Source: an uncultured Alphaproteobacteria bacterium (GTDB lineage: Bacteria; Pseudomonadota; Alphaproteobacteria; RF32; CAG-239). From it: a stretch of DNA of 64,000 nucleotides. Shown here piece after piece: positions 27,399 through 29,728 of the stretch. Made by a program: the position numbers and the translations under genes. How positions within the stretch are numbered: position 1 is the stretch's first letter; every line of letters starts with the position of its first letter. The stretch lies in NCBI GenBank assembly GCA_904501925.1, contig CAJGCO010000005.1:16219-80218 (forward strand). Reading direction: 5' to 3'. The notes under the pieces are model-generated. The model saw only the letters and a list, made by a program, of their open reading frames with translations. It did no database searches and had not been told where the DNA came from.

Positions 27399-27572
27399 CC
27401 GAATGAACATATTGAATTAGGAACTCTTTTAGTTAAACAGATATATAATTCTCTTGACAATCCAACTGTTGATAGAATAATAACTCTATGGAATAGCTTA
27501 GGCTGCAATACAATTTCATCTTTTGGATATAGAGGCAGAAAAGTGTATAATTTACGTCCTTGGAATTTATAG
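27399..27572 (+). pseudogene. Orphan 3' fragment (last ~57 codons) of toxin candidate 2
   Basis: Translation PNEHIELGTLLVKQIYNSLDNPTVDRIITLWNSLGCNTISSFGYRGRKVYNLRPWNL* is ~94% identical to residues 153-209 of the 29099-29728 product. There is no start codon, and homology begins abruptly at 27399. Confidence 0.8.
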
Positions 27573-27590
27573 GTAACTAAATTATATAAT

Positions 27591-28091
27591 ATGAATAGAT
27601 TGAATAAAATAAATAAAAAATATCTTTTTTATGCCATTTGGTACAGTTTTGCAACAATTGTAGCGATTTTAATGTATCGTGGTAGTTTAGGGGATAATAC
27701 ACAAGGTGCAATGTGTATATCTTATGATTGGCATATGGAAAGATGTATCAATGGATATGGGACGATACACCTTGTGTTTATTCTCTAGAATTTTATTTTG
27801 GATATTATGTATTTGCTACTTTTCTCTATATCATTTTTGATATTGTAAGGAGAAAAATTGTTGGTTTTAATCCTTCTTATTTTTTTCGGATATTTGAAGG
27901 ATTGGGCTGGTTTTTTTATAAATTATAGTTACTTGTTGTGGCTAACAAAATATAACTATGGCAACATTGACTTTACTATGTGCTTAATGGCTTTTGTTGG
28001 AACAAGCATTTTCTTTTTACCATTATTTTTGATTTTTGTTTTATCAAGAAAATTGTTCTATAATACTTATCATAATGAGGATAAAGAATAA
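27591..28091 (+). pseudogene. Frameshifted copy of immunity-like gene 2
   Basis: Three overlapping ORF pieces (27591-27788, 27728-27928, 27858-28091) together cover the 165-aa product of 28583-29080 at ~75-85% identity, and two frameshifts are needed. The spacing to the upstream toxin fragment (19 nt) is the same as in the intact pair (18 nt). Confidence 0.8.
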
Positions 28092-28094
28092 ATT

Positions 28095-28227
28095 AACCTC
28101 TTACTTTCGCTTGCAGTCGAACCCGCTTTTGCGTGTTCGCTTCCCTTGATGATGTTTGAAAAAAAAAGTAGTGTTGGAAAATAAGATGATACTAAAACGG
28201 GGAGAGAAATGGAGCAGGCGACGGGAA
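28095..28227. repeat. Direct repeat A: ~100 bp of tRNA-Gly downstream flank plus the last 18 nt of tRNA-Gly (tggagcaggcgacgggaa, 28210-28227), an att-like remnant
   Basis: 28199-28227 is identical to 30467-30495, and 28105-28165 is ~90% identical to 30371-30430. Confidence 0.8.
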
Positions 28228-28582
28228 ATTAAGGGTTAAACTTTTGAAATTACTGAATAAACATTGTTTTTTTAACGCTTTTTTTGCTATGTTTTTTTTG
28301 ATGTCGTCTACACGTCAATCTTGACCATAAAAAGCCCTATTCTTCAATATTCAAGCGACTTTCAAAAGAGTTGATGTTTATACATAACAGTCTTTAAAAA
28401 AACACTAATATATAAAAACATCTGTCTTAAATTCTCTATCGTCAACCATACTTAACTGACTGTTTATAATAAACTTGCAAAAAAGTCAATAAACAGAATG
28501 GGAAAAGGAGTTAACAAACTAAAAGTACATTAATAATCTTTTTGTTATTAAACCTTATCCCTCTTCATAAAGGTTATCTAGT

Positions 28583-29080
28583 TTACTCGTCCTTATGAGG
28601 ATAAGAGGTATGTAATAATTTTCTTGATAAAATAAAAATCAAAAATAAAGGTAAAAAGAAAATGCTTACTCCAACAAAAGCCATTAAGCACATAGTGAAA
28701 TCAATGTTGCCATAGTTGTATTTGGTTATCAATAATAGATAAACGTAATTTATTGATAACCAGCCAAATCCTTCGCATATCCGAAACAAATAAGAAGGGT
28801 TAAATCCAACAATTTTTCGCCGTATAATATCAAATATTACATAAATAACAGAACTCAAAATATAATATCCAAAATAAAATTCTAAAGAATAAACACAAGG
28901 TGCTCTGTCCCATACCCATTGATATATTTTTCCATAGTGATAATCATTAGGTACACACATTGCACCTTGTGTGTTATCCCCTAAACAACCACGGTATATT
29001 AAAATTGCTACAATTGTTACAAAGATATACCATATAGCGTATAAAAAAGACTTTTTATTTATTTTACTCAATCTGTTCAT
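28583..29080 (-). CDS. Multi-TM membrane protein with a Cys-containing extracytoplasmic loop, candidate immunity protein for toxin candidate 2
   Basis: 165 aa, four hydrophobic helices, 18 nt downstream of the toxin-like gene. A degenerate paralog lies at 27591-28091. Confidence 0.5.
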   Translation of the reverse strand: MNRLSKINKKSFLYAIWYIFVTIVAILIYRGCLGDNTQGAMCVPNDYHYGKIYQWVWDRAPCVYSLEFYFGYYILSSVIYVIFDIIRRKIVGFNPSYLFRICEGFGWLSINYVYLLLITKYNYGNIDFTMCLMAFVGVSIFFLPLFLIFILSRKLLHTSYPHKDE

Positions 29081-29098
29081 ATTATCTAATCTTGTTAT

Positions 29099-29728
29099 CT
29101 ATAAATTCCAAGGGCGTAAATTATACATTTTTCTACCTCTATATCCAAAAGATGAAATTGTATTTCGTCCTAAACTATTCCATAGAGTTATTATTCTATC
29201 AACAGTCGGATTGTCAAGAGAATTGTATATCTGCTTAACCAAAAGAGTACCTAATTCAATATTTTCATTGGGATTATTTGTGTCATAATATTTTCCATTG
29301 AAATTTCCCCACATATCTCCTCTAATATTCATAGGCATTTGGCTTTTAGATACTTCCATATAATCAGCTAAAGCATTCAAACCCAAATAATGCCCGCATG
29401 CATTTTCTAAAAATACAATAGTTTTAATAAGATTTGTATCGACATTATGGAGTGATGAATAGTATTCTATAGGTTGATTATATTTTTTTACAGCATAATT
29501 TCCAATTGGTGTAAAACACCACCATTTCATACTATCGTCTTCATTAGGATTATCATCTAAATGTAAATATAAAGGTTGTCCACTCAAAATTGCCTCCATT
29601 CTTTGAGTCGCATTTAAGTTGTTATCATAATTTTTATGTTGTTTTTTATAGAACTTATTTAATTTATTTAAAACTCTATCTTGAATTTCTGTTAATTCAT
29701 CATTTTGAAGTAAAAAATTGTATACCAT
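29099..29728 (-). CDS. Candidate toxin 2 (209 aa); possibly a lysozyme-like / lytic-transglycosylase-like peptidoglycan hydrolase, but the family is uncertain
   Basis: FLENACGHYLGLNAL loosely resembles the SLT E...G..GL(MQ) motif. There is no signal peptide and the RBS context is the same as toxin 1. The C-terminal tail is duplicated as an orphan at 27399-27572. Confidence 0.4.
   Translation of the reverse strand: MVYNFLLQNDELTEIQDRVLNKLNKFYKKQHKNYDNNLNATQRMEAILSGQPLYLHLDDNPNEDDSMKWWCFTPIGNYAVKKYNQPIEYYSSLHNVDTNLIKTIVFLENACGHYLGLNALADYMEVSKSQMPMNIRGDMWGNFNGKYYDTNNPNENIELGTLLVKQIYNSLDNPTVDRIITLWNSLGRNTISSFGYRGRKMYNLRPWNL

Follow-up and report, generated by a model that had tools for sequence, protein, structure and literature searches.

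An orphan toxin tail and immunity pseudogene opposite an intact candidate toxin/immunity cassette at a tRNA-Gly site of an uncultured alphaproteobacterium

Why should an intact candidate toxin/immunity cassette face an inverted, degenerate copy of its own 3' portion? The question is raised by a 64,000-nucleotide (nt) stretch of a metagenomic contig (CAJGCO010000005.1, positions 16,219 to 80,218; hereafter, the window) from an uncultured anaerobic alphaproteobacterium of the gut or rumen. On its minus strand, the window encodes a 209-amino-acid (aa) toxin candidate (29099-29728) and a 165-aa immunity candidate (28583-29080), which we refer to together as cassette 2; on the plus strand, there is a toxin tail without a start codon (27387-27572) and a broken immunity gene (27591-28091), which we refer to as the orphan. 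An earlier note on this DNA proposed that the orphan is the C-terminal tip of the resident toxin, displaced with its immunity gene by an incoming module as in Rhs and contact-dependent inhibition (CDI) loci, and then inverted locally. We favor instead an explanation in which the orphan is the remnant of an allelic cassette and the intact cassette 2 was later placed at the adjoining tRNA-Gly site, and we assign this a probability of about 70%.

Local alignment shows that positions 27387-28081 on the plus strand are an inverted copy of 29284-28590 on the minus strand, with 86.7% identity over 690 aligned nt and a few gaps of 1 or 2 nt, and this similarity is far above chance. A repeat scan resolves the copies into three collinear inverted blocks, 27387-27729/28942-29284 (343 nt, 88% identity), 27734-27912/28758-28936 (179 nt, 84%), and 27918-28081/28590-28753 (164 nt, 84%), which span the last 61 codons of the 209-aa gene, an 18-nt spacer, and the entire 165-aa gene. 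The copy begins at 27387, corresponding to codon 149 of the 209-aa gene and lying 12 nt to the left of the start at 27399 given in the earlier note; the orphan and resident tails are identical at 55 of 61 residues (90%), or at 54 of 57 counted from 27399, in keeping with the ~94% reported initially. The orphan tail thus contains codons 149 to 209 plus the stop codon, without the catalytic glutamate, and its breakpoint lies within the catalytic domain, past the catalytic residue Glu108, and not at a domain boundary. Upstream of 27387, an in-frame stop is encountered 7 codons (21 nt) away, with no ATG, GTG, or TTG between. The left junction of the orphan is confirmed by Logan contig L045 (run SRR11528972), which is 100% identical to window positions 25604-27494.

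The membrane-protein gene of the orphan is broken into three open reading frames (ORFs; 27591-27788, 27728-27928, and 27858-28091), none of which has a match by exact look-up in the protein collection. Relative to the closest intact allele, on the related contig L044, the ORF has exactly two single-base indels: 1 nt is missing between 27733 and 27734, and 1 nt has been added to a T-run beginning at 27911. These compensate for each other, such that the first and third pieces are in one frame. A metagenome scan at the first frameshift site gave no match to either the intact or the deleted form. The principal anatomical features noted previously, which are the inverted copy itself, the absence of a start codon, the spacing of 18 nt between the stop codon of the tail and the ATG of the membrane-protein gene in each copy, and the two frameshifts, are therefore all borne out by the sequence, the local alignment, and the comparison with L044.

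Is the orphan a decayed duplicate of the resident gene? With both frameshifts corrected, the orphan translates into 166 aa, and this product has 88.6% identity to protein P0033, 86% to protein P0034, and 74% to the resident 165-aa protein. P0033 is encoded on contig L044, which carries a 77-aa toxin-tail ORF and an intact 166-aa gene, with 92% nt identity to window positions 27387-28103. P0034 is encoded on contigs L042 and L043, in which an intact 166-aa gene is followed directly by the flanking sequence, tRNA-Gly, and rplJ, without cassette 2 and without a toxin tail. On these identities, the orphan is best described as a different natural allele of the P0033/P0034 type, and as neither a decayed duplicate nor a displaced tip of the resident gene. 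Comparison of the repaired orphan with the intact allele of L044 gives a ratio of nonsynonymous to synonymous substitution rates (dN/dS) of 0.24, which falls within the range for pairs of intact alleles (0.19 to 0.31), and most of the divergence has therefore probably accrued under constraint. The earlier description of the orphan as already decaying holds insofar as there are two frameshifts, but these values suggest that the decay is recent. We also note that in L042 the 5' region of the window's 226-aa gene (25916-26596) is fused straight ahead of the intact orphan-type immunity gene, indicating a ~1.6-kb deletion relative to the window arrangement.

The position of cassette 2 provides further insight. 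The orphan and cassette 2 are part of an island of ~6.5 kb (about 23.95 to 30.5 kb) bordered by a glutamine amidotransferase gene (22615-23616) and by tRNA-Gly(CCC) (30478-30551, minus strand), which is followed by rplJ/rplL. The last 18 nt of this tRNA (30478-30495) form an attachment-site (att)-like core, TGGAGCAGGCGACGGGAA, that is also present at 28210-28227, where it ends a segment (28099-28227) containing a copy of the tRNA-proximal flank; the tRNA-proximal copy itself lies at 30368-30477, and its part at 30368-30434 is 93% identical to 28099-28165. Island-type sequence starts directly after the core at 28227, and an identical junction is present in L038 and L001. In L038, a segment similar to 28228-28582 comes after a tyrosine integrase gene (PF00589) and a DUF6626 gene, and it stops at the att core. 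The corresponding segment of the window (28228-28582, minus strand) is a terminal remnant of such an island, within which a tblastn search found the last ~26 codons of the DUF6626 gene at 28522-28599; this overlaps the 3' end of the 165-aa gene, and extends a few bases beyond 28228-28582. The integrase gene itself is absent from the window and present in L038 upstream of the corresponding island tip. A third, diverged copy of the tRNA 3' end lies at 30266-30308, as seen from the repeat family and its alignment, and its counterpart in L001 matches exactly the att core of the tRNA in the same genome.

L042 carries an uninterrupted tRNA-Gly site. Relative to strains of the L042 type, the window has ~2.25 kb of extra DNA (28228-30477) containing the island tip, cassette 2 and its upstream region, the third att-like copy, and the second flank copy; intact cassette 2 thus lies within extra DNA bordered by direct repeats of the tRNA-Gly 3' end. 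The sequence of events may have been integration followed by deletion or replacement, or it may have been homologous exchange between strains. L042 and L001 likewise conserve the 67-nt flank that is duplicated here (93% identity between copies). When this flank was folded as RNA, no significant structure emerged (z = -1.5 and -0.9), and Rfam searches, both at the gathering threshold and at E ≤ 1, found only tRNA-Gly; the tRNA-like flank and the leader described below gave no hit to tmRNA or any other family. Elsewhere, BLAST with L045 revealed a direct repeat of ~80 nt (84% identity) at outer parts of the island region, at 22575-22653 and about 25815-25895.

What kind of protein is the 209-aa toxin candidate? 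Among aligned family members, 16 of 17 match the Pfam soluble lytic transglycosylase family SLT (PF01464) at E ≤ 0.1, with a best E value of 1.2e-5. A search of the family profile against PDB matched MltC at E 0.085, with the invariant Glu108 of an ENACGH motif aligned with the catalytic glutamate of the MltC 'ES' motif. An AlphaFold2 model of the 209-aa protein (predicted local distance difference test [pLDDT] 84.9) has as its top Foldseek matches in PDB the lytic transglycosylases MltE, MltC, and MltF and goose-type (g-type) lysozymes (E 4e-3, probability 1.0), and the model and the Glu108 alignment together conform to a lysozyme-like fold with the catalytic glutamate ending the first core helix. 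By profile and by predicted structure, the protein is a divergent SLT-type lytic transglycosylase, and the earlier suggestion that it may be lysozyme-like or SLT-like is thus substantiated. No transmembrane segment, hydrophobic N-terminal segment, or signal peptide was found in it. Relatives are numerous: a word-seeded search found 19 homologues in the database, species-representative genomes contain 33 loci, almost all in uncultured gut or rumen Alphaproteobacteria, and an exhaustive profile search with the SLT-like C-terminal toxin domain returned 743 clusters at 50% identity. In some of the long family members (P0106, P0108, and P0131), the SLT-like domain is preceded at a short distance by one GGxGxD (RTX-like) motif, and some long homologues also have PG_binding_1 domains.

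The 165-aa protein is predicted to be a four-helix membrane protein with a ~30-residue cysteine-bearing loop between helices 1 and 2, which in the family alignment is conserved and has invariant residues C42 and C62. The AlphaFold2 model places helices at residues 9-37, 66-90, 97-123, and 128-157 with low confidence (pLDDT 60.8), too low for use in a fold search. There were no matches to the protein in Pfam, NCBIfam, or PHROG, nor to the 209-aa protein in PHROG. Because a homologue of the membrane-protein gene lies directly downstream of the toxin gene in 23 of the 33 species loci, a toxin/immunity pairing of the two proteins is a reasonable reading, and the SLT-type matches and conserved downstream partner are in line with the earlier proposal of a peptidoglycan-targeting toxin with a membrane-bound immunity candidate. 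On contigs L038 to L041, set against cassette 2 of the window (28583-29728), the toxins are identical in protein sequence and the partnered immunity proteins are only 89 to 90% identical; dN/dS is 0.56 to 0.64 for close immunity alleles and 0.2 to 0.3 for distant ones, which suggests that the immunity gene is changing faster or is under diversification.

Comparison of related loci shows repeated turnover of the same kind. The toxin gene is cut or frameshifted and the partner gene is kept in L030, L031, L032, and L033, and in two close relatives, L001 and L002 (7382-8474), the first 52 toxin codons are replaced by unrelated sequence. Immunity genes without a working toxin are found intact and alone in L042 and L043, and with only a toxin tail in L044 and L031; L033 has arrays of partner-like genes. 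In four cases (the window, L031, L033, and L044), the kept tails begin at residues 132 to 149. As side observations, the immunity gene of L002 is disrupted as well, and L001 and L002 encode upstream of the toxin, on the opposite strand, a 151-aa cysteine-rich protein with a signal-like N terminus.

A second cassette in the same island illustrates its polymorphic character. Cassette 1, also on the minus strand, includes a 296-aa toxin candidate (24666-25556) with a Tlde1/YkuD L,D-transpeptidase-type domain (PF10908, 43.3 bits with a cut-off of 30.1, E 5.7e-11; YkuD, E 5.7e-7), and a 125-aa membrane protein (24233-24610) as its immunity candidate, a homologue of which follows a Tlde1-type gene in L004. 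Downstream of this immunity gene and in the same orientation is a displaced remnant of a third effector type (23970-24209, minus strand), which by tblastn is 67.5% identical over 80 aa to residues 78-157 of a GH108-type effector of L002. Residues 1 to 63/67 of the cassette 1 toxin (25368-25559, minus strand) match the N terminus of that same L002 effector at 68%. It therefore looks as if, judging from these matches, an older toxin of cassette 1 was displaced in frame by a Tlde1 and immunity module, with a new tip displacing an old one. A similar relationship is evident in Rhodospirillaceae bacterium LM-1 (L027), in which an SLT-type protein of 437 aa and a Tlde1-type protein of 395 aa (genes at 7194-8507 and 9014-10201) share ~200 N-terminal residues at 84.6% identity. 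This common region, which has no Pfam match, is a candidate delivery domain.

In other related loci, enzymes of the SLT, Tlde1, GH108, and Hydrolase_2 types are neighbors, and downstream of each is a small gene. Because neighboring cassettes pair a hydrolase with a partner, hydrolases share N termini, and partners are kept without a toxin, we prefer toxin/immunity to housekeeping roles. The arrangement typical of polymorphic toxins, a common N terminus with alternative toxin domains, is shown at the level of the locus and the family rather than for the short N terminus of the 209-aa protein itself. The earlier classification as a polymorphic-toxin locus thus stands with respect to shared N-terminal regions and the cassette 1 remnant, but not with respect to Rhs or CDI, no feature of which was found.

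The two cassettes also have a common leader. The ~215 nt directly upstream of the start codons are shared by three effector types (SLT, Tlde1, and GH108), and the copy upstream of cassette 2 (29729-29947, minus strand) has a TTGACA-type promoter-like site, two tandem terminators of the hairpin and U-run type (29829-29802 and 29783-29752), a ribosome-binding site, and ATG; the terminators fold at -30.3 kcal/mol (z = -6.35). A conserved copy lies upstream of cassette 1 (25557-25772, minus strand), and others are present in L002 (6064-6283), L038 (9782-9998), and L062 (7947-8146). The last of these was the one true leader among 62 matches in a metagenome scan with a 17-nt leader motif. Six of 62 predicted base pairs are kept through double changes, and the leader, which has no Rfam match, was detected in the close clade only. 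Its role may be that of an attenuator or antitermination leader, or alternatively that of a homology patch at which cassettes are exchanged. A further promoter-like site, TTGACA-16-AATAAT (11 of 12 matches), is present inside the toxin tail in both copies (27454-27481, plus strand; 29217-29190, minus strand), ~110 nt upstream of the immunity start codon, and is conserved in L001, L002, L038, and L044. It is plausible that such an internal promoter for the immunity gene is the reason why tails persist.

From these observations, a history and function of the locus can be proposed. The 209-aa SLT-type enzyme would be made in the cytoplasm, exported, and cleave peptidoglycan in the periplasm of a rival cell, and the 165-aa inner-membrane protein would neutralize the enzyme in the producer through its conserved cysteine-bearing periplasmic loop. 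A second, allelic cassette would earlier have held the tRNA-Gly-proximal site, and its toxin gene would have lost everything upstream of codon 149. The immunity gene of this older cassette, which is still intact in related strains, would have been retained as an orphan protecting against neighbors firing the same allele, with its promoter perhaps provided by the retained toxin tail. Later, the ~2.25 kb of DNA that includes intact cassette 2 and an integrase-island tip would have come between the orphan and the tRNA; the older module is oriented toward the tRNA and cassette 2 away from it, which would account for the inverted arrangement. The orphan immunity gene would afterwards have gained its two single-base indels. 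Of this account, the repeat, the identity of the allele, the uninterrupted site in related strains, the att-type repeats, and the SLT fold are observed, and toxicity, immunity, delivery, the internal promoter, and the order of events are inferred.

Several observations weigh against this proposal. Not only the att core but also the chromosomal flank is duplicated, which simple site-specific integration would not predict, and both frameshifts are known from a single metagenome assembly. The 209-aa protein itself scores below the Pfam SLT gathering threshold (13 bits with a cut-off of 21.3 bits), and toxicity and immunity are candidate roles for the pair. No secretion-system gene was found in the 64-kb window, in three annotated neighborhoods of ~20 kb, or in L027, and a Pfam search of the N-terminal extensions of 10 long homologues found PG_binding_1 and no known trafficking domain. 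The promoter-like site in the tail is a consensus match in AT-rich DNA, and its position is not conserved in distant loci, the strong form of the site being confined to the close clade.

How do other explanations fare? Displacement of the resident toxin's own tip, as proposed in the earlier note, would account for an orphan tail and immunity gene with identical 18-nt spacing, and similar displacement is seen in cassette 1, within a family having polymorphic-toxin architecture. However, the breakpoint falls within the catalytic domain and the tail is of the same toxin type at 90% identity, so it is not an alternative toxin domain; moreover, the orphan allele occupies the tRNA-proximal site in strains without cassette 2, cassette 2 lies within the extra DNA bordered by att-type repeats, and neither Rhs/YD nor CDI features were found in Pfam and NCBIfam searches. 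We consider this explanation unlikely. Similarly unlikely is that these are lysis cassettes, each a signal-less endolysin with a holin-like protein derived from a defective prophage or serving in particle or bacteriocin release, with the orphan being a decayed second one. The missing signal peptide of the 209-aa enzyme would fit, as would a small partner with multiple transmembrane segments and a charged C terminus, and a GH108-type neighbor in L002 matches phage endolysin PHROGs; but the cassette 2 proteins match no PHROG, and neither the window nor the related neighborhoods have phage genes. Several different hydrolases stand in tandem with their own partners and share long N-terminal regions, partner genes are intact without a hydrolase (L042 and L043) or form arrays of partner-like genes (L033), and the neighboring Tlde1 domain belongs to a family shown experimentally to be antibacterial type VI secretion system (T6SS) effectors (PMC9638812).

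Two further explanations concern the repeat itself. The juxtaposition could reflect mis-assembly of the metagenome, joining two strains through their common tRNA flank, given that the source is an 82.6-kb contig of a metagenome-assembled genome and that L042-like and L001-like haplotypes occur separately in relatives. This is very improbable, however, because identity is only 93% and 77% for the flank copies and 87% for the cassette arms, leaving no long exact k-mers in common; in addition, L045 supports the left side, and L001 has the same block of cassette, island tip, att site, and flank. Least probable of all is a role for the 695-nt inverted repeat as a working recombination substrate, in which the DNA between its arms would be flipped in the manner of a shufflon to exchange the toxin tail or the immunity allele. 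Long inverted repeats of 87% identity do flank a 508-nt spacer, and recombinase genes are beside the cassette in L038, but the window lacks a recombinase gene for about 5 kb to either side, one of the two arms carries frameshifts and is a pseudogene, no related contig showed an inverted or recombinant configuration, and insertion at the tRNA accounts for the arrangement. An allelic remnant with later placement of cassette 2 at tRNA-Gly thus remains our preferred explanation.

A broader and decidedly speculative idea is that the SLT-, Tlde1-, and GH108-type toxins are one interchangeable cassette system with shared N termini, in which the terminator leader holds off expression until antitermination and also serves as an exchange patch. 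We think this improbable, but if true, shared N termini matching no known trafficking domain would imply an unrecognized delivery route, and the leader would be a new cis-regulatory RNA.

The window is chromosomal, with housekeeping genes for PFOR, alanine racemase, PBP5, a Mur ligase, KdtA, LpxK, MutS, and UvrB. Between the cassettes, tail-to-tail, are genes for a 226-aa protein with multiple transmembrane segments (25916-26596, plus strand) and a cysteine-rich 204-aa protein (26677-27291, minus strand); Pfam and NCBIfam searches gave no match for these two, for the 125-aa protein of cassette 1, or for genes flanking related orphans. After rplJ-rplL there is no rpoB/rpoC, and there follow a small membrane-protein ORF on the opposite strand and then ORFs of 235 aa and 373 aa (31978-34395), the latter with no Pfam match.

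Conceptually the locus changes little, as mobile, tRNA-linked islands are already well known to carry orphan immunity genes and toxin remnants. The gain is descriptive: gut and rumen Alphaproteobacteria have a large uncharacterized SLT-like toxin family that is accompanied by a polytopic membrane protein as immunity candidate, and strain-level turnover can be traced at one tRNA-Gly site. The most interesting by-product is the ~215-nt leader common to three effector types, and validation of the toxin/immunity pair and of this leader would open a way into interbacterial antagonism in a gut lineage that has received little study.

How, then, does the locus compare with known systems? The 209-aa protein shares its fold and a glutamate in the catalytic position with the Family 1 lytic transglycosylases MltE, MltC, and Slt70 (PF01464), but sequence identity is very low (11 to 18%), it lacks a signal peptide or lipobox, and in contrast to the housekeeping setting of those enzymes, genes of its type stand beside a membrane-protein gene in cassettes that are mobile and polymorphic. 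T6SS muramidase effectors such as the Tge family are peptidoglycan-targeting antibacterial effectors, and the known immunity proteins of Tlde1- and Tge-type effectors are soluble periplasmic proteins or lipoproteins. The present cassettes resemble these systems in having cell-wall enzymes without Sec signals beside a protective gene, with a true Tlde1 domain in cassette 1; they differ in that the immunity candidate is a four-helix membrane protein, and no T6SS genes were found nearby in the available DNA. Tlde1 itself is an L,D-transpeptidase-fold T6SS effector of Salmonella (PMC9638812).

With Rhs/CDI orphan modules (PMC3967940), the locus shares an immunity gene preceded by a toxin 3' fragment without a start codon and, at cassette 1, a remnant downstream of a newer module. 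It differs in having no YD/Rhs repeats, PxxxxDPxGL or VENN motif, or CdiB partner, and the cassette 2 orphan is an independent allele, inverted, that breaks inside the SLT domain. Orphans of the Rhs/CDI kind lie downstream of the full-length gene from which they were displaced, and in its orientation; the remnant at cassette 1 is so placed, whereas the orphan opposite cassette 2 is inverted and lies beyond an att-type boundary. tRNA-linked integrative islands likewise have a far boundary marked by a directly repeated tRNA 3' end, and L038 has an integrase at the corresponding end; the window, by comparison, has no integrase, just ~380 nt of island tip, a doubled chromosomal flank, and three att-like copies.

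In function, the nearest parallels are orphan immunity genes and the acquired interbacterial defense (AID) and recombinase-associated (rAID-1) clusters of gut Bacteroidales (10.1101/471110). These likewise have immunity genes without a working cognate toxin and pseudogenized remnants in a gut host, and they are associated with mobile DNA with a tyrosine recombinase (here, in L038) and with repeated intergenic sequence (here, the shared leader). The differences are an alphaproteobacterial host, an SLT-type toxin with a polytopic membrane immunity candidate, no T6SS link found, and, rather than long arrays, a small island in which the window's orphan is itself frameshifted. In Vibrio cholerae, sequential displacement of effectors leaves arrays of immunity genes (PMC8189183), a parallel to the orphan described here, and we regard the feature as an ordinary product of toxin/immunity island turnover.

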